A stretch of 57,410 nt of DNA from positions 1-57,410 of the forward strand of contig JBAZWW010000007.1 in the NCBI GenBank assembly GCA_041660165.1. The letters run 5' to 3'. Positions 8,883 to 40,239 of this stretch are shown here, one piece after another. Origin of the DNA: Patescibacteria group bacterium. GTDB lineage: Bacteria; Patescibacteriota; Patescibacteriia; UBA9934. Made by a program: the position numbers and the translations under genes. The notes beneath the pieces were generated by a model. That model worked only from the letters and a program-made list of their open reading frames with translations, had not been told where the DNA came from and did no database searches. Each line of letters opens with the position of its first letter. Position 1 is the first letter of the stretch.

Positions 8883-9304
8883 AGGGATGAAGCTACAATG
8901 GCGTCTTGCAAAGGGAACATCACTTCCGCATCTTCTGCCTGTTCATGGTCATAGCCTAACACGTGGAGGATGCCGTGGACGAGGAGATCAGTCAGTTCGA
9001 GTTCAAGGTCTCCGTCTTCAGCTTGGCGCACGGCTTGCTCGAAAGAAATAACGACGTCTCCCAGATACCCACTCATATCCGCTTGAGGTGAAGCAAAGGA
9101 CAGCACATCCGTCACCTTGTCCTTCTGCCGATACATCCTATTTAATCGCCTAATCTCCTCATCCGTCACCGCGCTCAAGGAAACAACGCCCTCTGGCGCC
9201 GTTTTCAGCTGCTTCTCAAAGGCGTGGGCGATCTTTTTCAACCTCGCGCTTGAAAAACGGTGCTTGGCAGGAATTAGCTCTTGAGCAAGGTCAAAGGTGA
9301 TCAT
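8879..9304 (-). CDS. ybeY: rRNA maturation endoribonuclease YbeY
   Basis: Zinc motif HGILHVLGYDH. 4-nt overlaps with both neighbours. Confidence 0.9.
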   Translation of the reverse strand: MITFDLAQELIPAKHRFSSARLKKIAHAFEKQLKTAPEGVVSLSAVTDEEIRRLNRMYRQKDKVTDVLSFASPQADMSGYLGDVVISFEQAVRQAEDGDLELELTDLLVHGILHVLGYDHEQAEDAEVMFPLQDAIVASSL

Positions 9305-10976: not shown

Positions 10977-11801
10977 TTATTTTTTCAGTGGATCATGTCC
11001 TGACGCTACCTCCGCCCCATCAGTATACCCGTCTCCATCGGTATCCGGGTTTTTTGGGTCAGTAAAGTATTTGGTCAGCTCTTCACCATCAGATAATCCG
11101 TCTGCATCCGTATCCACAGAGTTGAATCCATCAAGACAGCCAGCGCGCGTTTCAATCGGAACCGCGTCGCAAGCCTTGATATCCCCAGATGCTACAGCAA
11201 CAGCCGTTGCGGTGGACCGGCATTCGCTCTCCGGCACTCCAAAACCACTACAATCATTCGCTAAACGCGCCTTATCAGTGACCATAACTTCACAACCAGC
11301 CCGCACAGCCAAATCAACCACTGTCTCGCATAACGAATATTTCTTGTCTAAAACGGCTTTTGTTGAAGTGGCCACATCTGTACAAGAAATTTTTTCAGCT
11401 CCCTCAAGCGAAGCACAGGCCTCAGCCGATCCCGAATCAATCGCAATAAGAGACAAGCAGTCGGCAAAAGCTGGTCCCGTCAAGCCGTTGCACCCGTCCG
11501 CAAATCCGACAGCTCTGGCGGCATCGGATTGCGGTACGCCACTATTAACCATGTCCGCCACGGCTGTTTTCTTTTCTGCCACTACCGCCTTGGCCTGCCT
11601 GTTAGCTTGAATCATGTTCGCCGTAAAGGCAATAATGAATCCGCCGACAATCATGGCCACTACTACTGCGCCCACGATCATGCCAAAATGACGCTTTTTA
11701 TAAAGCGGGACCGGTACGGCTTCAGGTTCCGGCGTCAGCGAGTAGAAAACCTGCTGAGGCTGGGACTGAGGTGGCGATGGTGGTTGGAGTACGTCCGGCA
11801 T
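10977..11801 (-). CDS. membrane-anchored surface protein with TSP3-type Ca-binding repeats (paralog 3, 274 aa)
   Basis: One TM helix (IVGAVVVAMIVGGFIIAFTANMI), a Cys-containing middle domain, and C-terminal DTDADGLSDGEELTKYFTDPKNPDTDGDGYTDGAEV. Confidence 0.75.
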   Translation of the reverse strand: MPDVLQPPSPPQSQPQQVFYSLTPEPEAVPVPLYKKRHFGMIVGAVVVAMIVGGFIIAFTANMIQANRQAKAVVAEKKTAVADMVNSGVPQSDAARAVGFADGCNGLTGPAFADCLSLIAIDSGSAEACASLEGAEKISCTDVATSTKAVLDKKYSLCETVVDLAVRAGCEVMVTDKARLANDCSGFGVPESECRSTATAVAVASGDIKACDAVPIETRAGCLDGFNSVDTDADGLSDGEELTKYFTDPKNPDTDGDGYTDGAEVASGHDPLKK

Positions 11802-11804
11802 ACG

Positions 11805-14800
11805 TTAAGGAGCGCAGTAATTAAGACGGACATCGGAAATCGTAATCTGGCCCGTTCCGCCAAAGGAAACGTGAATCGGCACCTGCTGTTCATGCACGCC
11901 GTCGCACTTCAGAAACTCTGGCCACGGAAGAACCTGCCCCGCGCCCTCATGCAAAACTACGGATGAAGCCACAACCGTGTTATTGGCGTCCGCGCTGAGG
12001 AGAGAAACCGTTATTCCCGTAATAGATTTAATGATCCCATCATAGGCGCTGGCCAGTTCAGTTGGCGTATGAGCGTCATAGGCGTAATCCACTCCATTGC
12101 TGGTATTTGTTTCAAGCGGACCGGTCCTCAGAGAGAAAGAGTTGCTTGACCATTTCTTCATGTTCTCAATGAGCGAGTACGTGTCGGTTAAGGCCACGGT
12201 ATAAATCTCATAATCTCTTTGTGATGCCTTAATACTATCGGCTGCGTCGTTAGTAACGGATAGCGCGTCTGCAGTTCCTTCCGGTTGTCCGTCAGAAAGA
12301 AGAATGATGATGTTGCGAGTATTGCTGGCGTTCGGCAGAGCATCAAGCAGGCCCTTGGCTGAAAGCAAGCCAAGCCCGGTCTGCGTGCCATTCTGCGCCT
12401 TGGCATCATAGGCATTGATACGGGAAGTGAGCGTGGTCTTTGCGTCCTTACCGCAGAAACCAAAAGTACAAACAGTCTGACTCTGCATCTTTGCCGTACA
12501 AATGCCTCCAGCCCCACACTCGCCATCTACAACGCCATCACAACTCTGGTTGTATAGATCATTGTGTGGTCTTGGATTTGTGCACATACCCGTCCCAGCG
12601 ATACCTGAGAAGCCAACCAAACTAATGTGCGCATGCTCGCCAAAAGCAGTAAAGACGGAGTTCACGGCAGTGGCCAAGGATGCCTTAACCGCATTGATGC
12701 GCGATGGATCAACGTAGTTTTGATTGATAGTAACCCCGTCAGCCTTGTAAAGACTCCTCCCTGCAAAATCCCAATCCATGGAACCGGATCTATCAGTAAC
12801 GAACACAATATTCACTTCCGGAGGAGTCACATTGTTCATGGAAACCGTCCCCGTGAGCTGGCCCACCAATGTACAGGCCGGAATGGTCAGAGTGGCCGCG
12901 TTCGGCAAAAGCGAAGTTGATGAGGAGCTGTAACTGTTCAACTCCACGCTTGAGGAGGCCCTGGATCCTGGAAGATTCGGCAGTAAGAGCGTGGGGTTGG
13001 TTGAGAAGGAAAATGGACAAGCACTGGCACAGCTATTGGAGCATTTTGGTTTTACACAAGCGATGCCGGTGCCACAAACCGTCATGTCGTACGGAATAGA
13101 AGAAATCGTTGTGTTAGTGCAATACTCGCCATTGCGGGGACCGCCATTGCAAATCCCAAGGTCAGCACAGTGATAAAGATCCTGGCCAACAGTTGTAAAA
13201 CCGGTTGGCGTAGAACATGAACCGGCAGTCTTGCCCGTCCCGGCATCATAATATGTCAGCTGAACATCAGAACCGTCGCAAAACTCAGTACCATTTCTTA
13301 CGCCGTCTCCGCAGAAAGCACCTGATGAAACCACATTTCTACAAGACACGGAGCACGCCGTACAGGTAGATCCGTAAGTTGAGGAACAGGACTGGCCGTT
13401 CTGCACGCCAAGATCACATTCTTCAACGCCTACATAATAGGCACCATCGCCACACACATTCGTCTTGCAGGAATTCGTACAACTATCAGAAGAATCCGTG
13501 TTGCCATCATCACACTCCTCACTCCCTTCTTTCTTGCCATTACCACAGGCAGAGAGAGCGGTGCACTTAATAAACCGGTAATTTGGAGTTACCCACTGAC
13601 AGGCCGTTCCATTACTGCCGTTGCCACAGGCCCGGATGCGAGAAGTCTGATAAGTCTGAGCCGAACATATGCCATCTGTTCCGCAACTGGAGTTTTGCGC
13701 ACAAATATGTCCAAGCTTGGCAGGATCTCCCGCCGTACAAACGGTAGAAAGAGGGCAAGCATCCGCCCACGCATACGGCCCAAGCGCAGTCATACCGCAT
13801 GTCCCGCCGGATCCGCAATCCGCATCCGTAGTACAAGGAGCACCGGTTTTTGTAGCCCCCGGAGTACACAGCTTGCCCTGATATGAATCGGTATTGCCAT
13901 CACAAACCTCGCCATTCCCCGCGTCCACTTTTGTGTCCCCGCAATAGGACGCAGGGCCAGAACAATCCCACGCGCAAGAAGAAGTTGCAGACGATTGATA
14001 AACGCCGTTCAATCCTCCGCAGATGCCTCCGCCAAATGCTCTGCGCCCAATGAGAGGAGGGGTACTTCCGCAATCACATTTCTCGCTACCAGCAAGCGAG
14101 CCATCTCCGCAGGAGAAACCGCTAGCCCTGGTACAATCAAATCCGCAAAAACCGTATTTACCGTTTTGCGCGCCGTCATCACATTCCTCCGCACCTTCTT
14201 TTAAGCCGTTGCCACAAGCATTGCTGACGCAGGCAGATCCCGAATCCGGAACAAAGGCTGTACACGAGGCATTACAAACTTGCGAGCGGAAACCGTCATT
14301 CACGCCGTCATTATTGCCATCGCAGGCCACCACCAGACCACCATGCTGGCCAAGCTCACACGTTTCGCCCCCGCCAATAACGCCATCTCCACAGGAAGCG
14401 GAGGTGCCATATGTCACACCCACGCAATATGACGCAGGGATGAAGCCATTACCCGTGTTCGCCGCTCCGCCAATCAAAACATCCACCCGGTCAGCTGGGC
14501 CATCCGTATCAATCGGACTGCCCCACTGCGCAGAGTATTCCAAGTCTGCAGTAATGCGCGCCGAACGGTTGCCCGTGGCAATGTAGTGATACACGTGCGA
14601 ATTGACCGGACAAACATATGCGCCCTTTGACTGGTCTACGCATGTAGCCGAATCAAATGAGACAAACGGACCGCCAGCGTTCCCGCAAGAATTCTTTGAA
14701 AAGACGTTCAAAGGGTCCTGTGCAATATCTTTCATCTCAAGCGCCCCGCCAAGGATATCGCTCCAAGACGGCCACGGACTGACGGCGATACTGCGCACAA

Positions 14801-17800
14801 AAGTTCCTGCGGACAGTTCCGGAACAATCGGAATGCATGATTCCGTTCCAGGGCACTCCCCGCCTGTACTACAAAGCTGAGCACCTGTCCCGCTACAAAC
14901 ACCGTTTTGTGTCCCGTACTTCTTAATTTCCGTACGCAAATCAGTCATGTCAGAAAGTCTTCTGATATCTCGGCGAACCTTCGCTTTCACGGAAGAACAC
15001 GCACGTGGAGAAATAGGACTAAGAGGACAGTCGCTATCGGCCGAGCAAGACGCGCTTGTCACCGCGCCGTTTACCGTACAGAGCGTCACGTCATTCATGT
15101 TAGAAGCAAACGCGAATGAAGACAGCAAAGCATCAGCAATTTTCTTCGTGGTGTCGCTCGCTCCATCATTATACGAAATGACGTAAATATTATCGTACAA
15201 CACGTTTGCCCCCAGATTCGGCGCGGCCACATAGGTTGACCGGCCGTCCTTCACCGCCAAAAAGCCATCAATCGTTGTCTCCTGCGGGGTTCCCTTAAAA
15301 TTCTGTGCCGTGTACCACGCGCGCGGAGAAAGGTAATCCGGGTTACTAAGAACCCGAACGCCAATGGCATCGCCTGATCCGTCCGCAGTTTCAAACAAAT
15401 ATTCCTTAATCACCCCTCCCGCCTGTGAGACAGGGGGCCTCACCACCGTCATACCCGGCAAATCGTCTGACACGCCGGCTATACCCGCGTCACGGCAGTA
15501 ATACGTAGAGAAATTCATCCAGCCGTTAGCCCCTTGCGACGCCAAGCCGTTCGCCCCGCCCCTGGCCGTATCTTCCCAAGGAAACTTGGATAATTCCGGC
15601 CACGGATTTTCACAAAGGAACGCAATAAGTGGCGCGGTACCAGAAACCACTTTCTCCCTTGGCGTGCCCGTGGTGGAGCCAAGAGCATCCGTAGTAATGG
15701 TTGCCTCAGCCAAAAGCGTGCTTCGGCCGTTCTTGCCCTTCACCGCCACATCCGCCAAATCATGCTGGGTGGCGCTCCTGGTGGCGGTAAACAAATCAGC
15801 ATTTGCCGGGGCCCACGCGGTGTAATCCCAAGCGTATGTGCCAGGGAGCGATTCAATCTCGCGCGTGGCGTTGCCTACGTATGAAAGCGCGCTTGTTTTG
15901 AACGTATGCACATCATCTCCGCGCGTAAACGCATTCGGGCTCTTCTTGTTTGTGTCGAGTACCTGAACGGCATCAAGCGAACACAGGCTCGGACCCGTCA
16001 TAAACACGGAAGAGACGGTTCCGCTCATGCCAACGCCTGTGGCCGAACGCACGCCGTCAGTAACCGCGTCTGAGATATCTTCATCTCCCTTCACAACAAG
16101 CATGTATGTAGTATTTGGCACAAGCGGTTTTGAGTAGCGCAGGTACACCCTATACGTTCCATCCGCTTGAGGAACCTGGTCAAAACCGTCAATCGGAAGA
16201 ACGCAGGCAACACCCGTATTTGGCGCCGCCTCAGCAGACGCGCCGGTCAAAAATCTCACAAAAGCATTTCTTGCCTGCGCAAAAATATTCTTTGGATCAT
16301 GCGCCAAATACGTGTAACCGGACGGACACGCGCCTGCAGTTAAGGAGTGGAATGAAAGATACATTCGATATTTCTCCGTAGTGATGGCCCCCGCCGTTTC
16401 TTTAAACGTAAAACTCGACGTGTCCATCTTTTGATTGAAGACGGCGTACAGCGATTGGTTCAAGCACACGGAGGTGCCGGAAGACGGATACGGAACCGCG
16501 GTTGGGCGAAGCGAACAGCAATTGTTTGTTCCCGCACCGTTTAGCCGTGGGTCACGGCAGTCCCGGTCTGAAGATGCCGAACAGGCAAGCGAGAGGCTGG
16601 CGGTAGTTGAAAGCCCCGAAGAAGATTCCTTAACCTCAATTGATGCGTTAGCCATTCTTGTTACGGCATCCACTTCAAATACCGCATCATCACGAACAAC
16701 CGCCGTTTGCGTAGGATCAATTCTACCGTCGCCACCGGCACTGACCTCACAGGAATAATTTTCCCCAGCGCCCAAATTCCCATCACCGCAATACGATGGA
16801 ACAAGGTACTGCGCGCTTGAACCCTCAAGGAGACAAGTGCTTGAACAGCCATCGCCGGAAATCCTGTTCCCATCTTCACACTCCTCACCCGTTCCCGGAA
16901 TAATATCCCCGCAGACTGATGGTGCCGTATAACGCGATGAAGAACCCTCAAGCAAGCATGAGGAAGAACAACCGTCGCCATTCACAATATTCCCATCATC
17001 ACAATTTTCTGCTGGTTTGTCCGTCCGGTCATCACCGCAAACTGCTCCGCCAATGGAAGCAAGCGTTGGCGTCCCCTCATTCAAACACTGAGAAGAACAG
17101 CCGTCGCCATTTTTTGCGTTGCCGTCATCACATTCCTCGCCAGCCTTAGTGGTTGTATCCGCGGCAATGTCATGGTTCCCGCACGTGGCGCCAACAAAAC
17201 GCGAACCCTCCGCCAGACAGAGTGAAGAACACCCGTCTCCGTCTGCTTTGTTCCCGTCATCGCAATCCTCACCCGCTCCAGAAGATGAACGTTCTACTCG
17301 GCCATTCCCGCACGTCGTGCCGGCGGTCGAGTTCCCTTCTCGTAAGCAGGAGGAAGAACAGCCGTCGCCGTTCGCTACGTTGCCGTCTTCACATTCCTCG
17401 CCCGCCAGTGCGTCTGCCGTGCCGTCCCCGCAAATAGCGGAATACGCCACGCTTCCTTTTGACGTACATGAAGCGGTACATGACGTTGAGACAGATGACG
17501 GAGAAGTGTCAACCATTGTTCCGCCCAGCCACTCAGCTACCCTGGTAGAAGAGTCATTATCAATATTTTGGTCTTTGATTGGATCCGTCCAGGCCCAGCT
17601 ATAAGAGAACCCCGTCAAGCGCTGGCCAGATGCGGAACAGCTATCCGCCGCGCCAAATGCTGAGGAAGAAAATGAGGCGCGATCCCCCGTTGAGCGGAGC
17701 GTGATAGCAGAAGGGGCGAGCGCTACGCGGTCAACCGCACACGCAGAGCCGTCTTCCCTGGCCCGGAACGTCCAAGAATAATCTCCGCCATCATTTGTTT

Positions 17801-20800
17801 GAATAAGACGAACTCCACTTTCGCTTGTGACACTGCCGGAAATAACCGCCCTGTAGAACGTGCCGGGTGTCAGAGCCAGATTGCCCAGTGTGAAGCCGGT
17901 GCACAGCCCCTGCGCGCCCGTCACAGTCACACAAGATGCCCGGACTCCGCCGATTTCCGTCACACTCGTACAAAGCTCATACGCGCAAGAGAAAAGTTTT
18001 ACAGCACCAACACGTTCAACACTGGATGAATTCATGGGGATATTAAACGTTCCGCCCACCTGCGCGTTTGGACAAGCTGAATCACAGGCCGGCCACGTAC
18101 CAGTCACATAAGGATCAAGGAAATTGATGGCCAGGTTTCCAGCTGATTTGATATCGCTACCCGTCTCTGAAGCCGTCACCGGGGTTTCTCCCTCAGCCAG
18201 CGCCTCAACCGTAGTACAGGCAGAGGCTCCGCCAACGCAGGCCGGATTCGCCGCGCTGTTGAAACGCGTAATAGAGGGACTAGCATCCCAGCTCCAGGAA
18301 TAACTAGCTGAATCCACAGGGACACAACCCGCAGTGGGAACCGCGCTAAATGATTTCGTTCCGCCAAGAAGAGTAATGACGCCCTTGGCCGGAGTGACGC
18401 GCACGCTGTCAATGGTGCAGGGCGCGCTTGTTGCCTGTGTCACGAAGGTCCAGGAAACATCGCGAGCGAGCCCGGCCCCGCCCGTGGAGACCGCCACCGT
18501 GGTCACCGTTACTCTGTACGTTGAGCTGACCGCCAGCGAAGCGCCTGGAATAAAAGTGAAGGATGTTGGCGTCGTTCGGAGAGTTCCTGAAGCAGAGATA
18601 ACGGCTGAACACGGGTTTGTACCCTGGCCGGTACAGCGGTCCACTTTCACGGCGTCATTCAGCGTTCCCTCATTCATAGCCTCCGTAAATTCTGCGTACA
18701 CCACCGCATTCGTACACACCAAATCCGTAAATTTGTTATTTGGCACGGCACTCACCCGATCCGCTGAACATTCAGTCACCAGCTGTGGTACATGAGGGAT
18801 GGCACCCGTAGAAAAACTCCAAGCATAGCCAGCGGTTGATCCCGCGCCGGCGGATACACCGCTCGTTACCTCAAAAAAGGTATCGTTCCCCTTTGTACCC
18901 GTGCTCGAAACCAATTTTACAGCTCCCGTTTTTGCCGCGGAAGGAACAGGAACTTTAATTTCCGTTGGCGACCAGGAAGCAATATTCGTCTGTGCTCCAT
19001 CCGCAAACGTAACGGTCCCCGTTGCCGTTCCGAATTGATTGCCAACCAGAGACACCGTGTCTCCTACGGCGCCAGTGCCAGGAATGACTCCGCAAACATT
19101 CGGCGCGCTATCATCAGCTGTAACTGTAAACGGCACCGTATTTGATGATTGACTGCTTGATGTTGTTACAGACACGTCATAGACGCCAACAGCCAGCGCC
19201 ACAGCAGAAGTATATTTTGCGGGAACAATGAAGCGGATCTGGTTGTTCGTCCATGGATTGATGGCGGAGCACGCCGTAGGGAAATCAATACTGCCAATTG
19301 CGGAATCTCCCGTAGCGCGGTTCACAAACTTCACTGTCCCCTTTGACGCGCCAAAGTTCGCTCCGTCAAGCGTGACATATCTGCCGATTCCGCCAGTTGC
19401 CGGAGAAAGCGTTGCTATAGATGGCAGGGTCCCTGTAGTTGAGACAGTTGAGGCCACGCGCAAAGAAAGCGCATTCGAAGAAATGCCATTCACGGAAACA
19501 GAAACAGGGAACGTACCGTTTGGCATCTGAGGCACTGTTGTCATGATTGAAGAGTTCGTCCATGCTGAATAGCTTCCCGCGCTCCCCTGCGTGCCAAAAT
19601 TCACCGTAGATGTTCCGCGGTTCGCGCCAAAATTATCACCAATTAGCCCAAGGGAATTTGTAGGAGAGACACTGTTTTTGTCGAGCGAACAAAGATTCGG
19701 ATGGATAACCGTATTCACGGCAAAGTTTGGAAGCACCGGTCCGTGATCATTAGCGGTGTCATCTTTCCTTGTCCCCCCGCTTGCAGTAACCGTAATTAGT
19801 CCGGAGACTGTAGTTGCTGGAACAATGACAATGATTTCTCTATCCGTCCAAGCACCTCCGCATGGCGCAACCACCGCCTCAACAGGACCATTCGCTCCCG
19901 TAAAGGAAACCTTCCCGGCAGAAGAACCAAAACCCGTACCGGCAATGGTTACATATGTTCCTGGCGCTCCAGAATCCGGCGATACCGCATTGATCACCGG
20001 GTTTTCAACACATCGTCCGGCCTCGCACAGACCGCTTCCGCAATCGGCATTTGCCGTACACGCGCCCCCGCTACACGCCCCGCAAAAATTCGGGCTGAGC
20101 GCGTCACCCCCGCAATCAATACCCGTTTCGCCACTTCCCGTATCAAGAATCCCGTTAAAGCAAGAGGCAGGTTTCACCCTCACCGTCACCGCATCAGTAT
20201 CCGTGTTGCCGGCCAGATCAGAAACCTGGGCAGAAACGCGATAGGATTTTCCGTTCTCTAGTCCGGCAGTATCCCAAAGGTCATCAATCGTCACGCTCTT
20301 CAAATCAGCGCCCGTAGCTGTCACCTCATCAAACAGGACATCACCAACTAAGAAACCGGCGGAAGCCACGCCCGCATCATCCGTAGCCTGAACCTGTACA
20401 GGTTGAGTGCTATCAGCAGGAACCGTTTGGTTATTGTCTGGCAAGGTCATGTGCGCTACCGGATTCTTCGTATCAACCACGGCCCCGCTCGTGAACCCGC
20501 CGGTACACGGCTTGGCAGTTGAACAGGTGAGCGTCAGGCCAGCTGTGCTCTTGAGCGTTGGTAAAACAGAAATTGAATAGGCGGTGGACGCGTCAAAACA
20601 GAAACGAGTCTCATTCGGCGTAGCGCATGGCGCGTCAGGATGGAAAGTGATCGTATTGCCGGCCACGGAAGAAACGCCAGGAACTTCAACATTGGTGGTT
20701 GAGTTCACAATCTTCAACTGGCCGTTCATGCTGGCCGGATCAATGGATTTGCTGAACGTCACGCGAACCAGGGCGTTCTGAATAGTGATCGTTCCGGCTG

Positions 20801-21290
20801 GCGAAATACCCGTCACTAATAGCTCTGAAGCTCCCCCCGTCCCGCCTATTCCCCCGCCCCCTCCACCCGCACCACCTCCGCCCCCTCCCGCACCACCAGC
20901 GCCCGTAGCACTCAAAAGTGCGGACAAGATAAAACTGACAATTGACCAAGAAAGCAGAATGATAACCAGCCCGATAGCTCCGCCAATCAAGATCTTCTTA
21001 GCTCTGCCCACTTTTTTCTCATCACCCGCAGCGGTCATCCACACAAATCCGCCGTAAAGCACAATGACCACCGCCACCACGCCAAGGAAAGAAATGGCCG
21101 TCCGGATAATCCGCGCAACAATAATCTTTGGATCAGTATTCCCAAGCCCGGTAGCATCGCCCACCGTGGTTAACCCGGTCTGGACATCACTAGTCTGCGC
21201 AAACGCCGGGACCGCAAATGCCAAGGAAGACACGGCGCTCAAAGCGACGAGTGACCCAAGCGCAAGTTGTTTAAGGCGTTTTATGTTCAC
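11805..21290 (-). CDS. giant multidomain surface protein (3161 aa): pilin-like membrane hairpin, poly-Gly linker, Ig-like and IPT/TIG repeats, Cys-rich repeats, C-terminal vWA
   Basis: Single uninterrupted 9486-nt ORF. Domain calls rest on motifs listed in the sub-features below. Antisense ORFs in the track are shadows. Confidence 0.9.
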   Translation of the reverse strand: MNIKRLKQLALGSLVALSAVSSLAFAVPAFAQTSDVQTGLTTVGDATGLGNTDPKIIVARIIRTAISFLGVVAVVIVLYGGFVWMTAAGDEKKVGRAKKILIGGAIGLVIILLSWSIVSFILSALLSATGAGGAGGGGGGAGGGGGGIGGTGGASELLVTGISPAGTITIQNALVRVTFSKSIDPASMNGQLKIVNSTTNVEVPGVSSVAGNTITFHPDAPCATPNETRFCFDASTAYSISVLPTLKSTAGLTLTCSTAKPCTGGFTSGAVVDTKNPVAHMTLPDNNQTVPADSTQPVQVQATDDAGVASAGFLVGDVLFDEVTATGADLKSVTIDDLWDTAGLENGKSYRVSAQVSDLAGNTDTDAVTVRVKPASCFNGILDTGSGETGIDCGGDALSPNFCGACSGGACTANADCGSGLCEAGRCVENPVINAVSPDSGAPGTYVTIAGTGFGSSAGKVSFTGANGPVEAVVAPCGGAWTDREIIVIVPATTVSGLITVTASGGTRKDDTANDHGPVLPNFAVNTVIHPNLCSLDKNSVSPTNSLGLIGDNFGANRGTSTVNFGTQGSAGSYSAWTNSSIMTTVPQMPNGTFPVSVSVNGISSNALSLRVASTVSTTGTLPSIATLSPATGGIGRYVTLDGANFGASKGTVKFVNRATGDSAIGSIDFPTACSAINPWTNNQIRFIVPAKYTSAVALAVGVYDVSVTTSSSQSSNTVPFTVTADDSAPNVCGVIPGTGAVGDTVSLVGNQFGTATGTVTFADGAQTNIASWSPTEIKVPVPSAAKTGAVKLVSSTGTKGNDTFFEVTSGVSAGAGSTAGYAWSFSTGAIPHVPQLVTECSADRVSAVPNNKFTDLVCTNAVVYAEFTEAMNEGTLNDAVKVDRCTGQGTNPCSAVISASGTLRTTPTSFTFIPGASLAVSSTYRVTVTTVAVSTGGAGLARDVSWTFVTQATSAPCTIDSVRVTPAKGVITLLGGTKSFSAVPTAGCVPVDSASYSWSWDASPSITRFNSAANPACVGGASACTTVEALAEGETPVTASETGSDIKSAGNLAINFLDPYVTGTWPACDSACPNAQVGGTFNIPMNSSSVERVGAVKLFSCAYELCTSVTEIGGVRASCVTVTGAQGLCTGFTLGNLALTPGTFYRAVISGSVTSESGVRLIQTNDGGDYSWTFRAREDGSACAVDRVALAPSAITLRSTGDRASFSSSAFGAADSCSASGQRLTGFSYSWAWTDPIKDQNIDNDSSTRVAEWLGGTMVDTSPSSVSTSCTASCTSKGSVAYSAICGDGTADALAGEECEDGNVANGDGCSSSCLREGNSTAGTTCGNGRVERSSSGAGEDCDDGNKADGDGCSSLCLAEGSRFVGATCGNHDIAADTTTKAGEECDDGNAKNGDGCSSQCLNEGTPTLASIGGAVCGDDRTDKPAENCDDGNIVNGDGCSSSCLLEGSSSRYTAPSVCGDIIPGTGEECEDGNRISGDGCSSTCLLEGSSAQYLVPSYCGDGNLGAGENYSCEVSAGGDGRIDPTQTAVVRDDAVFEVDAVTRMANASIEVKESSSGLSTTASLSLACSASSDRDCRDPRLNGAGTNNCCSLRPTAVPYPSSGTSVCLNQSLYAVFNQKMDTSSFTFKETAGAITTEKYRMYLSFHSLTAGACPSGYTYLAHDPKNIFAQARNAFVRFLTGASAEAAPNTGVACVLPIDGFDQVPQADGTYRVYLRYSKPLVPNTTYMLVVKGDEDISDAVTDGVRSATGVGMSGTVSSVFMTGPSLCSLDAVQVLDTNKKSPNAFTRGDDVHTFKTSALSYVGNATREIESLPGTYAWDYTAWAPANADLFTATRSATQHDLADVAVKGKNGRSTLLAEATITTDALGSTTGTPREKVVSGTAPLIAFLCENPWPELSKFPWEDTARGGANGLASQGANGWMNFSTYYCRDAGIAGVSDDLPGMTVVRPPVSQAGGVIKEYLFETADGSGDAIGVRVLSNPDYLSPRAWYTAQNFKGTPQETTIDGFLAVKDGRSTYVAAPNLGANVLYDNIYVISYNDGASDTTKKIADALLSSFAFASNMNDVTLCTVNGAVTSASCSADSDCPLSPISPRACSSVKAKVRRDIRRLSDMTDLRTEIKKYGTQNGVCSGTGAQLCSTGGECPGTESCIPIVPELSAGTFVRSIAVSPWPSWSDILGGALEMKDIAQDPLNVFSKNSCGNAGGPFVSFDSATCVDQSKGAYVCPVNSHVYHYIATGNRSARITADLEYSAQWGSPIDTDGPADRVDVLIGGAANTGNGFIPASYCVGVTYGTSASCGDGVIGGGETCELGQHGGLVVACDGNNDGVNDGFRSQVCNASCTAFVPDSGSACVSNACGNGLKEGAEECDDGAQNGKYGFCGFDCTRASGFSCGDGSLAGSEKCDCGSTPPLIGRRAFGGGICGGLNGVYQSSATSSCAWDCSGPASYCGDTKVDAGNGEVCDGNTDSYQGKLCTPGATKTGAPCTTDADCGSGGTCGMTALGPYAWADACPLSTVCTAGDPAKLGHICAQNSSCGTDGICSAQTYQTSRIRACGNGSNGTACQWVTPNYRFIKCTALSACGNGKKEGSEECDDGNTDSSDSCTNSCKTNVCGDGAYYVGVEECDLGVQNGQSCSSTYGSTCTACSVSCRNVVSSGAFCGDGVRNGTEFCDGSDVQLTYYDAGTGKTAGSCSTPTGFTTVGQDLYHCADLGICNGGPRNGEYCTNTTISSIPYDMTVCGTGIACVKPKCSNSCASACPFSFSTNPTLLLPNLPGSRASSSVELNSYSSSSTSLLPNAATLTIPACTLVGQLTGTVSMNNVTPPEVNIVFVTDRSGSMDWDFAGRSLYKADGVTINQNYVDPSRINAVKASLATAVNSVFTAFGEHAHISLVGFSGIAGTGMCTNPRPHNDLYNQSCDGVVDGECGAGGICTAKMQSQTVCTFGFCGKDAKTTLTSRINAYDAKAQNGTQTGLGLLSAKGLLDALPNASNTRNIIILLSDGQPEGTADALSVTNDAADSIKASQRDYEIYTVALTDTYSLIENMKKWSSNSFSLRTGPLETNTSNGVDYAYDAHTPTELASAYDGIIKSITGITVSLLSADANNTVVASSVVLHEGAGQVLPWPEFLKCDGVHEQQVPIHVSFGGTGQITISDVRLNYCAP
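12140..12821 (-). other. von Willebrand factor A (vWA) domain with MIDAS motif, interrupted by a Cys-rich insert
   Basis: VNIVFVTDRSGSMDW (the DxSxS MIDAS motif; Asp codon at 12792..12794), later NIIILLSDGQP and YTVAL. Confidence 0.7.
13010..14400 (-). repeat. Cys-rich repeat region, block 2 (degenerate CGDG/CGNG...ECD...C units)
   Basis: SCGDGVIGGGETCELG, ACGNGLKEGAEECDDGAQNGKYGFCGFDC, ACGNGKKEGSEECDDGNTDSSDSCTNSC, VCGDGAYYVGVEECDLG, FCGDGVRNGTEFCDG. Boundaries are approximate. Confidence 0.6.
16790..17445 (-). repeat. tandem Cys-rich repeats, block 1 (about 6 units; CG(D/N)G..EECDDGN..GDGCSSxC)
   Basis: CGDGTADALAGEECEDGNVANGDGCSSSC, CGNGRVE..GEDCDDGNKADGDGCSSLC, CGNHDI..GEECDDGNAKNGDGCSSQC and further units. 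Matches the myxococcal cysteine-rich repeat / DUF4215 pattern. Boundaries are approximate. Confidence 0.7.
18850..20000 (-). repeat. IPT/TIG-like Ig repeats (about 4-5 units) within the giant protein
   Basis: Recurring P-x-I-x-x-(V/L)-SP-x-x-G-x-x-G-x-x-V-T-(I/L)-x-G-x-x-FG units: PVINAVSPDSGAPGTYVTIAGTGFG, LPSIATLSPATGGIGRYVTLDGANFG, CGVIPGTGAVGDTVSLVGNQFG. Boundaries are approximate. Confidence 0.6.
20913..21152 (-). other. TrbC/VirB2-like (T4SS-pilin-like) two-helix membrane module of the giant protein, followed by a poly-Gly linker (20829..20906)
   Basis: GLGNTDPKIIVARIIRTAISFLGVVAVVIVLYGGFVWMTAAGDEKKVGRAKKILIGGAIGLVIILLSWSIVSFIL, then GAGGAGGGGGGAGGGGGGIGGTGG. Alignable with the N-terminus of the next gene. 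Confidence 0.6.
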
Positions 21291-21299
21291 AAAATTTCT

Positions 21300-23060
21300 T
21301 TAGAAGAGCGAACACGCGGTTGCTGAGGCCGTACCATTGCAACAATAGGGTTGGGATGCGGACACTCCGCATGTTCCGCCAGAAGCATCAGGGCCCACGG
21401 CGGGGACATAACAATTCTGGTACTCGTTGCGCAAATCCTGCGTTGCCTCTGTCCCGTAGACGTAGGATTTTCCATCCGTGGATTCAAGGAAAGTGCCGTG
21501 CGCAATGGTCACCACCGTTTGCGCAGGAACCTGGGAAGATGAAGCAACCACGTCGCCGTTTGCCGTCAAATACGAAAGTCTTGTCGAGTACCACATCTCA
21601 TGCGAAGTACCGCCTATCAGCTCCTTATTCGTCAACAGAATGCTATCTGATGATACTGAGGAACTCTGGAGAACGCCGTCAAACGTAGCCGTCACCGCCT
21701 GATCAAGCGGAACACTTTCTTCAGCAATGTTCGGGGCCACGGACAGGATCTTGGGGCCAGTGAGCGCAATGTCGCCCGTAGTTGAGAAGCTCCACGCATA
21801 CGCGTCCCCCGCCGAGCCATCACCGTTTCCATCAAGTGAATTTCCGGCCATATCCACCACGCCATTGTACGGGAAATTATCAGCCTGTGGCGGGGCTGTG
21901 GTGGTGGTTGCGGATTTTATGGAGACTGAGAGACTTGAACTGCCCGGCAAACACATGATGGTCTGACCGCAAGAATTTGTTCCGCAGGGATTTGCGGGAA
22001 CAAACGTCAGCGCTGTGTAGCCGTTGGAAATTTCATAGGTTCCCGGGGTAGTAGTTCCGCCCGCGCCAACCGTAATATTATCGAATCCGCTTGTGTCGCC
22101 CCTTGTACCGGTAGCTGAAGTGGGATCAATGGGCTCAGAAAATGTAGCCTGCACCGAAATATTCCTCGAATATGTGCCAGAATTCCCCGGAGTAACCGTC
22201 ACGATCGAAGGAGGCGTCAGATCGAGAACGGTGCCCGTTTCAAATGACCACTGGTATCCGCCGGAAAAACTCCCGCTAAAAATCTTGGCCCCGCCAACAT
22301 TCTTAATATCTGCGGTCAAGGCCACGGTGTACTGCACTTTGGCGCTGGCTGAACCAAGCGGATCCGCCAGCTTCAAAACAAACGTCTTGCCGTCAGCCGT
22401 GCCGTTCACCGTAATAGCACTTGCAGGCAAGGACGCCGTTGCCCCCTGCGCAGTTGGATAGATCTTCACTGAAGACGCAGTAACTGAAGCTGGATCAAGC
22501 GCATCCTTAAACGTAATCATGATCTTTGTATTCCTCGGAACACCGGTTTGATTTCTTGCCGGGAAGTGGTCGCGAATCGGTCCACTGCCGAGTGCTCCCG
22601 ACAATCGCTCAACAGACACCCCTCCGTTGTTAGCTCCCCCGCCTCCGGCCCCGCCAAAGCCCGTAGCCCCGCCAAGCGCGTTCACAATAAAGGTGGTGAT
22701 GCCGTACGCGCCAAGCGTGATCACGATACCAATCGTAGCGTTAATCAAGATGCTCTTCGCCTTCTCCACCTTCTTATGATCGCCTCCCGCTGTCATCCAA
22801 ACAAAACCGGCGTACATGAAGAGAATGAGAAAAACAACGCCCAGGATGCCAAGGAAAACACTAATAATCCGGCCTACCAGCGAAGGGAGGTCGGAATTTC
22901 CCAGCCCTGCCGTTTGCGCTACTTGATCCGTATTTGAAAGCGCCTCAGTCTGAGCAAACACCACCGGCGCGGAAACGAAAAAGCCCCCCGTCAGGACAAG
23001 GATTGTGAAAATAACATTCTTAGCCCAACGGCGTAGCATAGCTCCCGCACATTTTACCAC
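21300..23060 (-). CDS. surface protein (586 aa) with the same pilin-like N-terminal module plus Ig-like (SbsA/Big-type) repeats
   Basis: GLGNSDLPSLVGRIISVFLGILGVVFLILFMYAGFVWMTAGGDHKKVEKAKSILINATIGIVITLGAYGITTFIVNAL + GGATGFGGAGGGGANNGG (module about 22674..22910). The start could instead be Met8 at 23039. Confidence 0.85.
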   Translation of the reverse strand: MVKCAGAMLRRWAKNVIFTILVLTGGFFVSAPVVFAQTEALSNTDQVAQTAGLGNSDLPSLVGRIISVFLGILGVVFLILFMYAGFVWMTAGGDHKKVEKAKSILINATIGIVITLGAYGITTFIVNALGGATGFGGAGGGGANNGGVSVERLSGALGSGPIRDHFPARNQTGVPRNTKIMITFKDALDPASVTASSVKIYPTAQGATASLPASAITVNGTADGKTFVLKLADPLGSASAKVQYTVALTADIKNVGGAKIFSGSFSGGYQWSFETGTVLDLTPPSIVTVTPGNSGTYSRNISVQATFSEPIDPTSATGTRGDTSGFDNITVGAGGTTTPGTYEISNGYTALTFVPANPCGTNSCGQTIMCLPGSSSLSVSIKSATTTTAPPQADNFPYNGVVDMAGNSLDGNGDGSAGDAYAWSFSTTGDIALTGPKILSVAPNIAEESVPLDQAVTATFDGVLQSSSVSSDSILLTNKELIGGTSHEMWYSTRLSYLTANGDVVASSSQVPAQTVVTIAHGTFLESTDGKSYVYGTEATQDLRNEYQNCYVPAVGPDASGGTCGVSASQPYCCNGTASATACSLF

Positions 23061-24949: not shown

Positions 24950-25873
24950 TCATTCCCGCTCCACAATGGAATATCCGTCCAGAATGGCATCGCAAACAAA
25001 GTCCTCTAAAAGACTCGTGTCTGCAGTCATTTGAGCTTTATTGAGATAGGCCATGTAAAGGCCCTTATTGCCTGAACGGATAACCACAGGGGCCAGATTT
25101 GACCGGAGCGCCATAGCGATCATCATGAGCCGGCCTACTCGACCATTACCGTCCCCAAAGGGGTGGATCTTTTCAAAACGGGCATGGATTCCGGTCATCT
25201 GAGCCATGACATCTTTCCCCTCGCGCTTAAAGTCACGGCCAAGCTCTTTCATGAGGTCTGGAATCTTCAAGTAGTTGGCCGTAGGGACGTAAGTGCCAAG
25301 AATACGAACTGCGTGATAACGATACTGTCCAGCGTCCTCACGGATGGCGTTTATGAGAATGGAGTGCAACTTCAAAATCAGCTCTTCGTTTAATGGCTGT
25401 TCGTCCTGCAGATACGCGAAGAGATATTGAAGCGCGGCCTGGTGATTCTTCGCTTCCAGTTGTTCAATGAGCGTTCTATTCGGTAAGGATGCGTTTCTAA
25501 AGAGCACCGCCGCCGTATCCCCCTCACTCATGGTACTGCCTTCAATTTTGTTCGAGTGAAATGTGAGCGACAAATACAACTGGTCCCGGACGTCGGGATT
25601 GGCCAGGATTTCTTTAAGAATATTCCTATGCGCTTTTTGCTTGCCAAAAATGTGCGCTTTCTTAGCCTCAAGCACCGTCTCAGGAATGAACTTCTCGCCA
25701 GAGTATTCTTTGTACAGTTCATCAATCTTGGCCAGCGCACCGGCTCGCGGTACAGCTCTGTCATTCATCCAACGGTTAAGCGTAACAAAAGAAACGCCAA
25801 AACGCAGACCCATCTCTTCCTGAGATAGCCCTGACATTTTCTGAATAAGCTGGAGTTTTTGCGAAATGGTCAT
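24950..25873 (-). CDS. Fic-family protein with N-terminal XRE-type HTH
   Basis: Fic motif HPFGDGNGRVGRLMM. Upstream inhibitory-helix-like SNKIEG, matching (S/T)xxxE(G/N). N-terminal HTH LSQEEMGLRFGVSFVTLNRWMND. Confidence 0.88.
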   Translation of the reverse strand: MTISQKLQLIQKMSGLSQEEMGLRFGVSFVTLNRWMNDRAVPRAGALAKIDELYKEYSGEKFIPETVLEAKKAHIFGKQKAHRNILKEILANPDVRDQLYLSLTFHSNKIEGSTMSEGDTAAVLFRNASLPNRTLIEQLEAKNHQAALQYLFAYLQDEQPLNEELILKLHSILINAIREDAGQYRYHAVRILGTYVPTANYLKIPDLMKELGRDFKREGKDVMAQMTGIHARFEKIHPFGDGNGRVGRLMMIAMALRSNLAPVVIRSGNKGLYMAYLNKAQMTADTSLLEDFVCDAILDGYSIVERE

Positions 25874-25990: not shown

Positions 25991-26248
25991 TTACCGACCG
26001 CCAGTGCGCTTCGGCTTGAGATCTTCTTCCTTGAGCTTGCCTGTTTTAAGCAGGAACTCCCTACGCTCGCCTTTGACTAGGCTTCTGAGGGCGCTGTCAT
26101 GGACTTTGTTCTTAGCCGGAGACTTGGCAAAGAAACGGTGTCCGCGAACTTCCAGCACTTTACCGCTCTGTTGGAGACGGCGGGAAAAACGGCGGAAGAC
26201 CGCCTCAAAACTCTCCCCCTTCTTTCGTTTGACTTCGATTGATGCCAC
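25991..26248 (-). CDS. rpsU: 30S ribosomal protein S21
   Basis: ESFEAVFRRFSRRLQQSGKVLEVRGHRFFAKSPAKNK. Small, basic, typical bS21. Confidence 0.85.
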   Translation of the reverse strand: MASIEVKRKKGESFEAVFRRFSRRLQQSGKVLEVRGHRFFAKSPAKNKVHDSALRSLVKGERREFLLKTGKLKEEDLKPKRTGGR

Positions 26249-26558: not shown

Positions 26559-27212
26559 TTATAAAAGAACGGATGGAGCCAGTTCTCTTGCGCGTTCAGA
26601 AAAGAATCGCTTGAGTTCAGGAACGGTTAATGGCTTCAGCATTTTTGGGAGAGCCTCCACCCGACTCACTTTTGCCAACTCGCCTCCAAGAAACACCTCG
26701 CTAATTTTTACAGCGAATTTCTTTTGAGCGTCAGCACGCACATCGTCCAACTTTCGTTCTTGAAGCAAGAAGTACATGTCCACAAAATCCTTTGGATCAA
26801 ACCGGTCAAGCATAGCCATGAGCTTATTCGCGGCAATGTCGCGCAGGCTATCTATCACCATGCCGTTCTGCGGAGCTGATGGATCGAGCCGTGGAAAAGG
26901 ATAGCGGGTAAATTCAAGCTTCAGTTCATAGCCGTCTGCAAACGTCAAAAAATATAAATTCCGATCATACAAGTGTTCAAAGCGCACATCTTGAGCGTTG
27001 AGTTCTCCCCGCAGTTTCTGAACAAAAGACAGAAGAAACTGTTTGTCCGGCGGGTTGACGGTAAAAAAATCAAGGTCATCGGAAATCCGATGCTGGAAGT
27101 GATAGGCAGAAAGAGCCGTCCCCCCACTCAAATAATATTCGGCTAATCCAGGCTCATGCGAAACCGCCAAAAGAACAGCCCGTTGCCGATCCGTTAAAAG
27201 GGTTTGTTCCAT
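26559..27212 (-). CDS. AbiEii/DUF1814-type nucleotidyltransferase (type IV toxin-like)
   Basis: Signature YLSGGTALSAYHFQHRISDDLDFF, plus DSLRDIAANKLMAMLDRFDPKDFVDMYFLL. Confidence 0.8.
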   Translation of the reverse strand: MEQTLLTDRQRAVLLAVSHEPGLAEYYLSGGTALSAYHFQHRISDDLDFFTVNPPDKQFLLSFVQKLRGELNAQDVRFEHLYDRNLYFLTFADGYELKLEFTRYPFPRLDPSAPQNGMVIDSLRDIAANKLMAMLDRFDPKDFVDMYFLLQERKLDDVRADAQKKFAVKISEVFLGGELAKVSRVEALPKMLKPLTVPELKRFFSERARELAPSVLL

Positions 27213-28868: not shown

Positions 28869-29486
28869 TTAATACGGATACTGGGGAACCATGAACGTGC
28901 CTGCCTTATCAAGAGGGAGTCCGCGAATCCAGACGCGCCCTACAATGTTCCCCCTAGGTACAGCACCGAACACACGGGAGTCAAGGCTGTGGTCTCTATT
29001 GTCACCCATGACAAAGTACTGATTGGCACCCAGCGTCAGCTCATCCGGCTGGCCAATGGTTGGCTGTGTTAAGTATTCTTCAGGAAGCGGGACGCCGTTT
29101 GGAAACTCTTTATTTGAAATGGTCACTCTGCCTCCGCCCACATTTACTTTCTCTCCGGGAAGACCAATAACGCGCTTGATGTAATACTGTTTTTCATTTC
29201 CGGGCGGATGGAACACGATAATTTCTCCACGCTCAGGATCTCTCAAGCGGAACGTCACCTCGTCCACTATCAAATATTCGTTATCGTGAAAATTCGGCTC
29301 CATGGAAGCGCCCTTCACAATGAACGGAAGGATGAGGAAATGCCTAGTGATAACAATAATGACCAGGGCAAGCACAGCGATCTGGACAATTTCAAGAAAG
29401 AAACTCGCCACAGCTCCCAAGGTGGGGCCGAGCATCCGCTCAAGCGCGGAAATCGTCGTAGCGGGCGTGCGTCGTCTAAAAATCAT
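28869..29486 (-). CDS. lepB: signal peptidase I
   Basis: GASMEPNF (catalytic Ser), RVIGLPGEKV, GDNRDHSLDSR. Confidence 0.92.
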   Translation of the reverse strand: MIFRRRTPATTISALERMLGPTLGAVASFFLEIVQIAVLALVIIVITRHFLILPFIVKGASMEPNFHDNEYLIVDEVTFRLRDPERGEIIVFHPPGNEKQYYIKRVIGLPGEKVNVGGGRVTISNKEFPNGVPLPEEYLTQPTIGQPDELTLGANQYFVMGDNRDHSLDSRVFGAVPRGNIVGRVWIRGLPLDKAGTFMVPQYPY

Positions 29487-36843: not shown

Positions 36844-36855
36844 ATCCTCGGTTTT
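36833..36855. terminator. bidirectional hairpin CCGAGGAT-TAA-ATCCTCGG + TTTT containing both convergent stop codons
   Basis: The topA TAA (36841..36843) forms the loop. The stop of the convergent gene (36840..36842) overlaps it in the palindrome TTAA. Confidence 0.6.
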
Positions 36856-40237: not shown

Positions 40238-40239
40238 AC

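Follow-up and report, generated by a model that had tools for sequence, protein, structure and literature searches.

Two adjacent surface-protein genes

The window, i.e., the whole 57-kb stretch of DNA that was analysed (57,410 nucleotides), carries two adjacent genes, here called S and G, that encode large proteins with the same type of N-terminal module (Table 1). G begins 9 nt past the stop codon of S. Both ORFs are present at the coordinates given in the first-pass annotation, on the minus strand, but its length of 586 aa for S is probably to be replaced by 579 aa: the likely start is the ATG at 23039, which is preceded by GGGAG, and 75 S orthologues align from this Met. Of the two ectodomain sizes it gave, about 3000 aa is retained for G, while 450 aa for S is corrected to about 440 aa.

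Table 1. Coordinates of S, G and associated features within the window
Feature	Position	Strand	Description	Basis
Gene S	21300-23060	-	longest ORF 586 aa; pilin module and Ig-like surface protein	
S signal peptide	22953-23039	-	MLRRWAKNVIFTILVLTGGFFVSAPVVFA, predicted cut before Q; Sec type, AxA before the cut	sequence and hydropathy
S pilin hairpin	22674-22910	-	residues 51-129 of the 586-aa ORF	PF18895
S Gly-rich linker	22620-22673	-	GGATGFGGAGGGGANNGG	sequence
S ectodomain	21303-22619	-	Ig-like (Big_5) domain chain; Cys-rich C-terminus (C..CG..PYCCNG..AC)	
Gene G	11805-21290	-	3161-aa giant surface protein	ORF list, translation
G signal peptide	21198-21290	-	VNIKRLKQLALGSLVALSAVSSLAFAVPAFA, predicted cut before Q	sequence and hydropathy
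G pilin hairpin	20910-21152	-	residues 47-127; helix 1, loop AAGDEKKVGRAKK, helix 2	PF18895
G poly-Gly linker	20823-20909	-	SATGAGGAGGGGGGAGGGGGGIGGTGGAS	sequence
G VWA-like domain	12111-12815	-	C-terminal; MIDAS motif D2833-R-S-G-S2837	Pfam VWA, VWA_2
TSP3 (Ca-binding) repeat genes	10977-11801, 10319-10972, 9301-10299	-	three single-pass membrane proteins, tightly spaced after G	Pfam TSP3_bac (first two); DTDGD repeats in translation (third)
Signal peptidase I gene	28869-29486		within the conserved neighbourhood	

In S, the Ala at position -1 of the signal peptide is kept in at least 90% of the 75 orthologues. The hairpin that follows consists of helix 1, the basic loop GGDHKKVEKAK and helix 2, and the AF2 model (mean pLDDT 87.8) places the helices at residues 51-82 and 88-122 in the 579-aa numbering. 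The linker has a pLDDT below 50 at residues 128-139. The S ectodomain is all-beta at pLDDT above 90, matches Pfam Big_5 in three stretches (E 3.9e-22), and gave Foldseek matches to Ig-like domains of L,D-transpeptidases, the S-layer protein SbsC and cadherins; four of its cysteines (C543, C566, C567 and C576) are invariant in the 75 orthologues. The G module was likewise modelled as a helical hairpin with helices at pLDDT of about 90, and the Pfam domains of G comprise PF18895, Big_5, Big_7, four TIG and seven DUF4215 copies, along with an NCBIfam match to a cysteine-rich acidic repeat. The VWA model (PF00092) scores 22.8 bits in G, just under the cut-off of 23.8; VWA_2 also matches, and VWA is annotated in one G orthologue (locus L020). 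The inter-helix loops of the two modules have net charges of about +3 and +2, and the mature N-terminal segments are acidic.

Two other kinds of surface attachment were considered. A sortase/LPXTG anchor is ruled out from the sequence, as neither protein contains an LPxT[GAS] motif or a C-terminal hydrophobic segment, and a type IV pilin signal is ruled out by N-termini of the Sec type (AxA, then Q) that lead into two helices.

The shared module belongs to the T4SS_pilin family

BLASTP aligned residues 35-129 of S with residues 30-125 of G over 96 aa, 48% of the positions being identical and 65% positive (E 4e-22), a similarity well above that expected by chance. The shared N-terminal module proposed in the first-pass annotation is thereby upheld, and the motifs quoted there were all found, i.e., GLGN(S/T)D, (Y/M)(A/G)GFVWMTA(G/A)GD-x-KKV-x-(K/R)AK and a second hydrophobic helix followed by a Gly-rich run. 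The resemblance to Pfam T4SS_pilin noted there holds as well: against a curated gathering cut-off of 26.6 bits, PF18895 scored 33.3 bits for full-length S and 34.0 bits for full-length G, and 36.8 and 39.8 bits, respectively, for the N-terminal 147 aa. The TrbC/VirB2 family that it had named alongside (PF04956) was matched by neither protein directly (no match at E≤1). When 47 family members were scanned, all matched PF18895 and 13 also matched PF04956 (best E 2e-7); a relative with seven modules matches PF04956 at 1.4e-31, and some S orthologues carry a precomputed PF04956 match. The tie between the S/G modules and true VirB2, drawn here by profile comparison, is transitive only.

Alignment of the S and G modules with 45 free pilins was gapless across the core, with the family motifs GLG..D, YGGF.WMTA.GD..K...AKK and IGL.I common to all, and the identity of the G module with stand-alone pilins (110-150 aa) is 50-62%. 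In S and G the module is confined to the first 130 residues, or 4-20% of the protein length. An HMM built from the 47 family members detected no further carrier ORF in the window besides S and G. Searches outside the family returned little. Foldseek comparison of the modelled hairpin with the PDB yielded nothing at E≤0.001, only generic helical hairpins (best E 0.4) and no pilin among the top 50 matches; a two-helix hairpin is too simple a fold for this comparison. The module profile run with hmmsearch against PDB sequences gave nothing meaningful and no conjugative pilin, and among 72,556 plasmids tblastn detected no counterpart of the G module at E≤1.

The PF18895 family has 96,955 representatives at 50% identity in a library of 1.84 billion proteins, and its presence in Patescibacteria has been published (PMC12102498), in line with the abundance in candidate-phyla bacteria stated in the first-pass annotation. 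Single ORFs with 6-17 tandem modules occur among the relatives; such multi-module ORFs dominate the top 150 of the representative search, which is therefore unusable as a census of fusion frequency. Many other architectures include the module too; it occurs in LamG giants, in SLT fusions and in ORFs that carry several copies of it.

Conservation of the fused architecture

The S search returned 207 homologues at E≤1e-3, the best 120 of which are all full length (552-638 aa, 39-93% identity), and a module-bearing giant ORF lies directly downstream of S in all 12 independent loci examined, which stem from different samples and assemblers. The description of the module as fused to large ectodomains, not a free pilin, thus stands. 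It is extremely improbable that the fusion is an artefact in which a frameshift or mis-call joined a small pilin gene to that of a downstream adhesin, or that a generic signal anchor was recently duplicated. This idea arises only from stand-alone pilins being the usual form; against it, the fused architecture extends across the 207 homologue clusters (the best 120 being full length) and the 12 loci, the S and G modules are mostly closer to their orthologues than to one another, and the Pfam match is significant. Both variants, gene-fusion artefact and recent duplication, are ruled out by conservation and synteny.

Mean module identity is 53% among S proteins, 54% among G proteins and 45% between S and G. 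Judged from sequence comparison, the S/G duplication is older than divergences at which the housekeeping protein YqeY is only 37-49% identical; S itself evolves about as slowly as YqeY. In the 75 orthologues, identity to the S protein of the window is 0.61 for helix 1, 0.75 for the loop, 0.60 for helix 2, 0.51 for the ectodomain, 0.34 for the linker and 0.23 for the signal peptide. The loop is hence the best conserved segment of S, and G78, W81 and M82 are invariant. That the hairpin, and the loop above all, outconserves the ectodomain and far outconserves the signal peptide argues against a generic anchor. The first-pass annotation had considered that the segment might match no pilin HMM and derive from recent duplication of such an anchor; this fails, since the PF18895 match is significant, the duplication is old and the hairpin is conserved far above the signal peptide.

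For G, a homologue search with the first 900 aa gave few matches owing to candidate pre-selection. The G orthologues are collinear at 35-55% identity across about 3000 aa, with a Gly/Ser-rich low-complexity linker at the same position in 6 of 6 aligned sequences. The VWA region is the least conserved part of G (0.20-0.33 per 100 aa vs. 0.35-0.6 over most of the rest), and the MIDAS motif DxSxS/T is retained in four of the six orthologues. A tip that is the most variable part of G yet mostly keeps its MIDAS was counted, from sequence, toward ectodomains that are adhesin-like, along with the Big_5 and TIG domains, the VWA score close to the cut-off and the Foldseek matches to Ig-like chains of the S-layer and cadherin type.

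Genomic context

No T4SS ATPase or channel gene was found among the ORFs of the 57-kb window, as had been stated in the first-pass annotation. Scanning 44 ORFs against Pfam revealed only housekeeping or unrelated genes; the other ORFs, which lie towards the right end of the window, were judged from their translations alone. In relatives, VirB4, VirB6 and other mating-pair-formation genes were absent within 10 kb of the pair. Pfam TSP3_bac matches the first two of the three genes downstream of G, and translations revealed transmembrane segments in all three products; a TSP3_bac gene also comes after G at loci L001, L006/L007 and L020. The four stand-alone pilins nearest to the G module (P0004, P0031, P0011 and P0028) had no VirB4 gene within 10 kb, and three of them belong to pilin arrays behind an SBP_bac_1 gene.

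The S-G pair resides in an operon of housekeeping genes, and its loci come from Patescibacteria of class ABY1 (Uhrbacteria and relatives), including assemblies GCA_028710985, GCA_003694565 and GCA_964570945. These three assemblies are absent from the accessible part of the supplementary tables of PMC12102498, and the accessible text of that survey covers Uhrbacteria only in generic statements. Given the housekeeping operon context, the S-G pair probably belongs to the constitutive core envelope of ABY1 Patescibacteria rather than to mobile-element cargo.

Candidate roles of the hairpin

The first-pass annotation suggested that the pilin fold has been re-used as a membrane anchor or polymerisation base for adhesins. 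The anchoring topology predicted from the sequences of S and G is well supported; a role in polymerisation is hypothetical. After export, signal peptidase I would cleave each protein and leave the hairpin embedded in the cytoplasmic membrane, its two ends facing outward and its basic loop inward, which would correspond to the resting topology of conjugative pilins. The flexible Gly-rich linker would let the ectodomain project away from the cell, S as a short rod made of Ig-like domains and G as a fibre of about 3000 residues composed of Ig/TIG domains and Cys-rich repeats, at whose end the variable VWA/MIDAS domain may bind a ligand on a partner cell. The hairpin, in turn, may contact one of three partners: S or G itself, the free-pilin pool, or T4SS components encoded elsewhere in the genome.

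We lean, with modest confidence, toward S and G being modular VirB2-like pilins, i.e., surface adhesins whose T4SS_pilin hairpin serves as a membrane base and keeps a pilin-type interaction. The hairpin probably retains such a contact and is more than a passive anchor, as suggested by the loop and its flank (G..WMTA.G....A), where S is conserved best and where it matches the motif of the free pilins. In the F pilus, the two pilin ends face outward and the lumen is lined by the basic loop (PMC5018250), and a C-terminal graft is therefore geometrically compatible with a pilus. On the other side, the window has no T4SS gene, the link to true VirB2 is transitive only, and the structure, PDB-sequence and plasmid searches brought up no conjugative pilin. 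To our knowledge, PF18895 proteins have not been seen to form a pilus in any organism, and a graft of 3000 residues cannot fit every subunit of a tightly packed filament. The occurrence of free-pilin arrays away from VirB4 in ABY1 and of ORFs with 6-17 modules casts doubt on the family always acting as a pilus subunit.

An exapted hairpin of the same N-out/C-out topology, in which contact with pilins or a T4SS has been lost and S and G are simply tethered adhesins or envelope proteins, is a serious but less probable explanation. It would fit a window without T4SS genes, the housekeeping operon here and in relatives, the recurrence of the module in LamG giants, SLT fusions and multi-module ORFs, the steric awkwardness of a giant ectodomain within a filament, and a rate of S evolution about as slow as that of YqeY, as expected of a structural envelope protein. 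However, a passive anchor would not need G78, W81 and M82 to be invariant in 75 orthologues, or a motif that is kept in free pilins; the conservation of the hairpin, the cytoplasmic loop especially, above the ectodomain and far above the signal peptide speaks against it as well, and the adjoining TSP3 proteins get by with ordinary single-pass anchors.

The junction between hairpin and ectodomain raises another alternative, which we consider improbable: S and G could be pro-proteins, cut at the Gly-rich linker so that the pilin is freed into the membrane pool and the ectodomain is shed as a secreted or S-layer-like protein. RP4 TrbC, which sheds a C-terminal extension before maturation, is a possible precedent. 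The disordered Gly/Ser linker sits exactly at the junction and is conserved in position across orthologues (all six aligned for G), the Foldseek matches of the S ectodomain include SbsC, and the conserved neighbourhood contains a signal peptidase I gene. Nevertheless, this lepB is probably the housekeeping copy of the cell, and the linker has no conserved cleavage motif and is the least conserved segment after the signal peptide.

A further step beyond the modular-pilin reading would place S and G, as minor or tip subunits, in a VirB2-type pilus, their hairpins being extracted by a T4SS encoded elsewhere together with free PF18895 pilins, so that the filament would display the Ig-like rod of S and the VWA-tipped fibre of 3000 residues of G. 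We regard this as rather unlikely.

Implications

Patescibacteria are obligate epibionts. A T4SS and VirB2-like pilins are essential in the sole genetically tractable species (PMC10633639; PMC12102498; PMC12857230). S and G are two large surface proteins that the core genome encodes throughout the class and that are built on the same pilin module as T4SS pilins; they are concrete candidates for attachment, could be the adhesins missing from the Patescibacteria T4SS apparatus, and connect envelope adhesins with the T4SS in a way that can be tested. We found no paper on the fusion of a pilin hairpin to large ectodomains. A PF18895 match cannot automatically be taken as a small pilin: according to the accessible part of PMC12102498, VirB2 was called there by the PF18895 profile, and proteins of the S/G type would thus score as VirB2 at any size. 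Should the hairpin be an anchor only, it would still show how giant surface proteins can be held by their N-termini in a phylum whose envelope biology is scarcely known. If instead S and G are pilus subunits, they would be the adhesins so far missing for host attachment by the Patescibacteria T4SS, and also the first natural conjugative-type pilins with grafted adhesion modules, convergent with modular type IV pilins.

Comparison with known systems

The closest counterparts of the module are the VirB2-like pilins of Patescibacteria, published as PF18895 proteins and, together with VirB4, described as widespread in the phylum, ABY1 included, in the accessible part of PMC12102498. In Ca. Southlakia epibionticum, a pilin array within the T4SS locus is essential (PMC10633639; PMC12102498; PMC12857230). 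S and G resemble these pilins in family (HMM and motifs), in the layout of signal peptide, hairpin and basic loop, in phylum and in having paralogous neighbours. In contrast, the known pilins are stand-alone proteins of about 110-150 aa, often in arrays of 2-11 genes, whereas S (579 aa) and G (3161 aa) carry Ig/TIG/VWA ectodomains and reside in a housekeeping operon. Of 1948 assemblies, 1135 have a pilin gene close to virB4, while the S-G pair has no T4SS gene in its 57-kb window.

With TrbC/VirB2/TraA (PF04956; PMC5018250), S and G share a Sec signal peptide, a two-helix hydrophobic hairpin and a basic inter-helix loop; their predicted topology places the N- and C-terminus on the outer side, like those of F pilin, and some PF18895 members are also recognised by the TrbC model. 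They differ in having no direct PF04956 match, no match found to a solved pilin structure and no linked VirB4 or VirB6, and the large C-terminal graft excludes head-to-tail cyclisation. Conjugative pilins polymerise together with phospholipid to form an extracellular filament.

Adhesins of the PrgB type, anchored by LPXTG/sortase, are also large multi-domain Ig-like surface proteins of monoderm bacteria that could mediate cell-cell contact. They are, however, anchored C-terminally by sortase, unlike S and G with their N-terminal pilin hairpin and no LPXTG, and Pfam reported no PrgB homology for either protein. The survey of 3,035 genomes found no adhesin tied to the T4SS; its accessible part states that "no adhesins such as PrgB were detected" (PMC12102498).

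The grafted architecture has a parallel in PilB of Streptococcus sanguinis, a modular type IV pilin with a von Willebrand A-like adhesion module (PMC8179133). In both cases an N-terminal pilin module bears a C-terminally grafted adhesion module, vWA included, in a monoderm bacterium. PilB nevertheless belongs to an entirely different pilin superfamily with another assembly machine. Type IV pilins begin with a class III signal peptide and a prepilin-peptidase site, after which comes one hydrophobic helix, in place of the Sec signal peptide and VirB2-type hairpin of S and G. The resemblance of S and G to modular type IV pilins is thus one of analogy, not homology.

Two adjacent genes share a pilin-type hairpin module

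Database searches of the window were focused on two adjacent minus-strand genes, encoding a smaller surface protein (S) and a giant protein (G), each beginning with a hairpin module. Nine nt separate the S stop codon from the G start. The ATG at 23039, which is preceded by GGGAG and encodes the Met from which 75 orthologues align, is the likely start of S, giving a predicted 579-aa product. The first-pass annotation had proposed, from the sequence, a shared N-terminal module of the T4SS_pilin type. BLASTP bore out the sharing (S 35-129 against G 30-125, 48% identity, E 4e-22), and all hairpin motifs quoted there were found in S and G. The HMM search agreed with the family assignment: Pfam T4SS_pilin (PF18895; VirB2-like pilins of Patescibacteria) scored 33-34 bits for both full-length proteins and 37-40 bits for their N-terminal fragments, above the cut-off of 26.6 bits, while NCBIfam NF045849 (ICE pilin-like) gave a weak match, under its cut-off. 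A search with the G module alone retrieved 74 proteins, nearly all stand-alone Patescibacteria pilins of 110-150 aa with at most 59% identity, and a 47-sequence alignment revealed family-wide motifs common to the S module, the G module and free pilins. PF18895 matches every one of the 47, and PF04956, the TrbC/VirB2 conjugative pilins, matches 13 of them (best E 2e-7); a seven-module relative, P0289, has a TrbC match of 1.4e-31. Since relatives match TrbC while the Pfam scan gave no PF04956 match for S or G themselves, their tie to classical conjugative pilins is, as judged from these profiles, real but transitive.

Coordinates of features in the window and in pilin-array loci of relatives
Feature	Sequence	Coordinates	Strand	Basis
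S, longest ORF 586 aa	window	21300-23060	-	ORF translation
G, 3161 aa	window	11805-21290	-	ORF translation
Signal peptidase I (S26) gene	window	28869-29486	-	
AbiEii-family nucleotidyltransferase toxin gene	window	26559-27212	-	
rpsU	window	25991-26248		
HTH-Fic gene	window	24950-25873	-	
Three consecutive ORFs (350, 796, 107 aa)	window	36840-40563	-	
Stand-alone pilin gene array	L008	6759-13752		
Stand-alone pilin gene array	L017	7458-11412		
Stand-alone pilin gene array	L019	7539-12207		

Protein architecture and membrane topology

Both proteins start with a hydrophobic signal peptide ending in AxA before Q (VFA-Q in S, AFA-Q in G), and the -1 Ala is nearly invariant among S orthologues. That S and G are pro-proteins cleaved at the linker behind the hairpin appears improbable. 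AF2 modelled residues 33-137 of G as a helical hairpin (pLDDT 78.7 overall, about 90 within the helices) and placed the helices of S at 51-82 and 88-122. The mature N-terminal segment is acidic in both proteins and the inter-helix loop is basic (AAGDEKKVGRAKK in G, AGGDHKKVEKAKS in S), which by the positive-inside rule would put the loop in the cytoplasm and both ends outside. The hairpin is followed by a disordered Gly-rich linker (pLDDT <50). The ectodomain of S was modelled with confidence as an all-beta chain (pLDDT >90), for which Foldseek matched Ig-like chains of L,D-transpeptidase N-terminal domains, the S-layer protein SbsC and cadherins. G contains Big_5, Big_7, four TIG and seven DUF4215/cysteine-rich acidic repeats, with 138 Cys residues, and terminates in a VWA-like domain with a MIDAS motif, D2833-R-S-G-S. 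Neither sequence has an LPXTG signal.

Based on this architecture, S and G would be exported via Sec and anchored by the hairpin, N-out/C-out in the membrane, as surface adhesins, a reading that we consider very probable. A fuller version, in which the anchor would also retain a pilin-type interaction, is favoured with more caution. The hairpin could instead be a passive anchor, which seems rather unlikely. Mean identity to the window S protein among 75 orthologues is 0.23 for the signal peptide, 0.61 for helix 1, 0.75 for the loop, 0.60 for helix 2, 0.34 for the linker and 0.51 for the ectodomain, and a generic hydrophobic anchor would be expected to vary like the signal peptide; the helices and loop are far better conserved. 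Furthermore, G78, W81 and M82 are invariant in these orthologues and conserved at the same positions in free pilins. We infer that the hairpin probably retains a specific contact of the pilin type. The F pilus has both pilin termini on the outer side of the filament and the basic loop along the lumen (PMC5018250), so a C-terminal graft via a flexible linker would fit the geometry needed for display on a VirB2-type filament. True incorporation of S and G into a T4SS pilus is nevertheless doubtful.

Genomic neighborhood

The window covers a part of the chromosome devoted to housekeeping, with genes that include topA, dprA, pth, der, lytR, lepB, hisS, rpsU, yqeY, hflX, ybeY, dgkA, ftsA, ftsZ, nrdR and pyk, with three TSP3-repeat membrane-protein genes after S and G. 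The intergenic spacing from hflX to ybeY, including S and G, is 0-20 nt, which makes co-transcription of S and G with core genes probable. Among the window genes, none for VirB4, VirB6, VirD4 or any other T4SS component was detected, as the first-pass annotation had noted for ATPase and channel genes, and an HMM built from the module family matched only S and G within the window.

The signal peptidase I gene, also present in the S-G neighborhood of L001, L004 and L006/L007, is probably the housekeeping LepB. TrbC pilins of RP4 are matured by S26-family TraF peptidases, and a link of this peptidase to the S-G pair is conceivable. The AbiEii and HTH-Fic genes lie on either side of rpsU. In L001, L004 and L006, hisS, a small ORF in the rpsU position (with a Ribosomal_S21 match only in L001, a weak one) and yqeY are contiguous, so the two genes look like lineage-specific insertions of the toxin-antitoxin or defence type. 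Between topA and a RelA/SpoT gene, three highly acidic ORFs, coiled-coil-like or low-complexity in appearance, gave no Pfam match; this segment has the strongest GC skew of the window (-0.24) and a negative AT skew.

Conservation and evolution of the gene pair

We identified 207 S homologues at E<=1e-3. The best 120 of them are all full-length (552-638 aa, 39-93% identity), and all but one contain PF18895 and Big_5. Where a source is named, it is Uhrbacteria, Parcubacteria or 'Patescibacteria group'; in addition, Magasanikbacteria have G-like proteins and Falkowbacteria S-like ones. Table S1 of PMC12102498 places these groups in GTDB class ABY1. Among the loci examined (L001, L002/L003, L004, L006/L007, L010-L014, L016, L020, L021), a module-bearing giant ORF directly follows S in every readable one, usually within the same lepB-hisS-yqeY neighborhood and usually with a TSP3 gene after the pair. 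G is collinear with five relatives over about 3000 residues (35-55% identity), the VWA tip being least conserved. An assembly or gene-call artefact, which would make the fusion spurious, is ruled out to a practically negligible probability by this conserved architecture and synteny.

Mean core-module identity is higher for S-S (53%) and G-G (54%) than for S-G (45%), which points to an S/G duplication older than the compared divergences, at which YqeY is 37-49% identical; the same values rule out that a generic anchor was duplicated recently. Identity between the S and G hairpins is 74% in L016 (5411-8686) and 69% in L004 (9989-21418), against 31-55% in the nine remaining loci, a pattern suggestive of occasional gene conversion within the pair. 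The S-type protein of L016 is unusually long (ORF of 959 aa).

Breadth of the module family

At E<=1e-3, the module family accounts for 96,955 of 1.84 billion cluster representatives. Many top-scoring PF18895 proteins (P0195, P0204, P0244 and P0289 among them) carry 2-17 tandem modules in one ORF; the 552-aa P0195 has six complete hairpins with Gly/Ser linkers between them, continuous and without stop codons. Such ORFs may represent polyproteins, membrane proteins of 12 to 34 helices or arrays that gene callers have merged. Other architectures include a G-like giant of 2832 aa with the module and a LamG domain (Laminin_G_3; P0343), a 612-aa protein combining two hairpins with a predicted SLT lytic transglycosylase of VirB1-like activity (P0309), and Cys-rich ectodomains with one module at either side (P0305). 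This variety supports the earlier general idea of pilin-fold re-use and indicates that the hairpin is a widely reused building block in the phylum, a warning that a PF18895 match does not automatically denote a pilus subunit.

Three distant ABY1 genomes each have 5-12 stand-alone pilin genes in an array that is directly preceded by an NTP_transferase and SBP_bac_1 pair (the latter ~470 aa, solute-binding-protein-like), with no VirB4 within 10 kb of the arrays. This SBP-plus-pilin-array unit is conserved in all three; no mention of it was found in the literature read.

Comparison with known systems

VirB2-like pilins of Patescibacteria are already published and are essential in Ca. Southlakia epibionticum (PMC12102498, PMC10633639, PMC12857230). 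The survey in PMC12102498 used PF18895 and related profiles and reports these pilins in 1948 assemblies, in arrays of 2-11 genes; it also states that adhesins such as PrgB were not detected. In its Table S3, one Uhrbacteria genome has adjacent VirB2 matches (genes 552 and 553) without VirB4, and another has VirB3, VirB4 and TrsD as genes 2-4 and a VirB2 match as gene 584. These matches are compatible with an S-G pair far from the T4SS, as S/G candidates only. No description of the module fused to large ectodomains was found in the literature searched; automated annotation has picked up the fusion, e.g., in JGI's 'Type IV secretion system pilin/Bacterial Ig-like domain'. In design, the nearest analogue is PilB of Streptococcus sanguinis, a modular type IV pilin onto which a vWA module is grafted, although its pilin superfamily is unrelated to the S/G hairpin family (PMC8179133).
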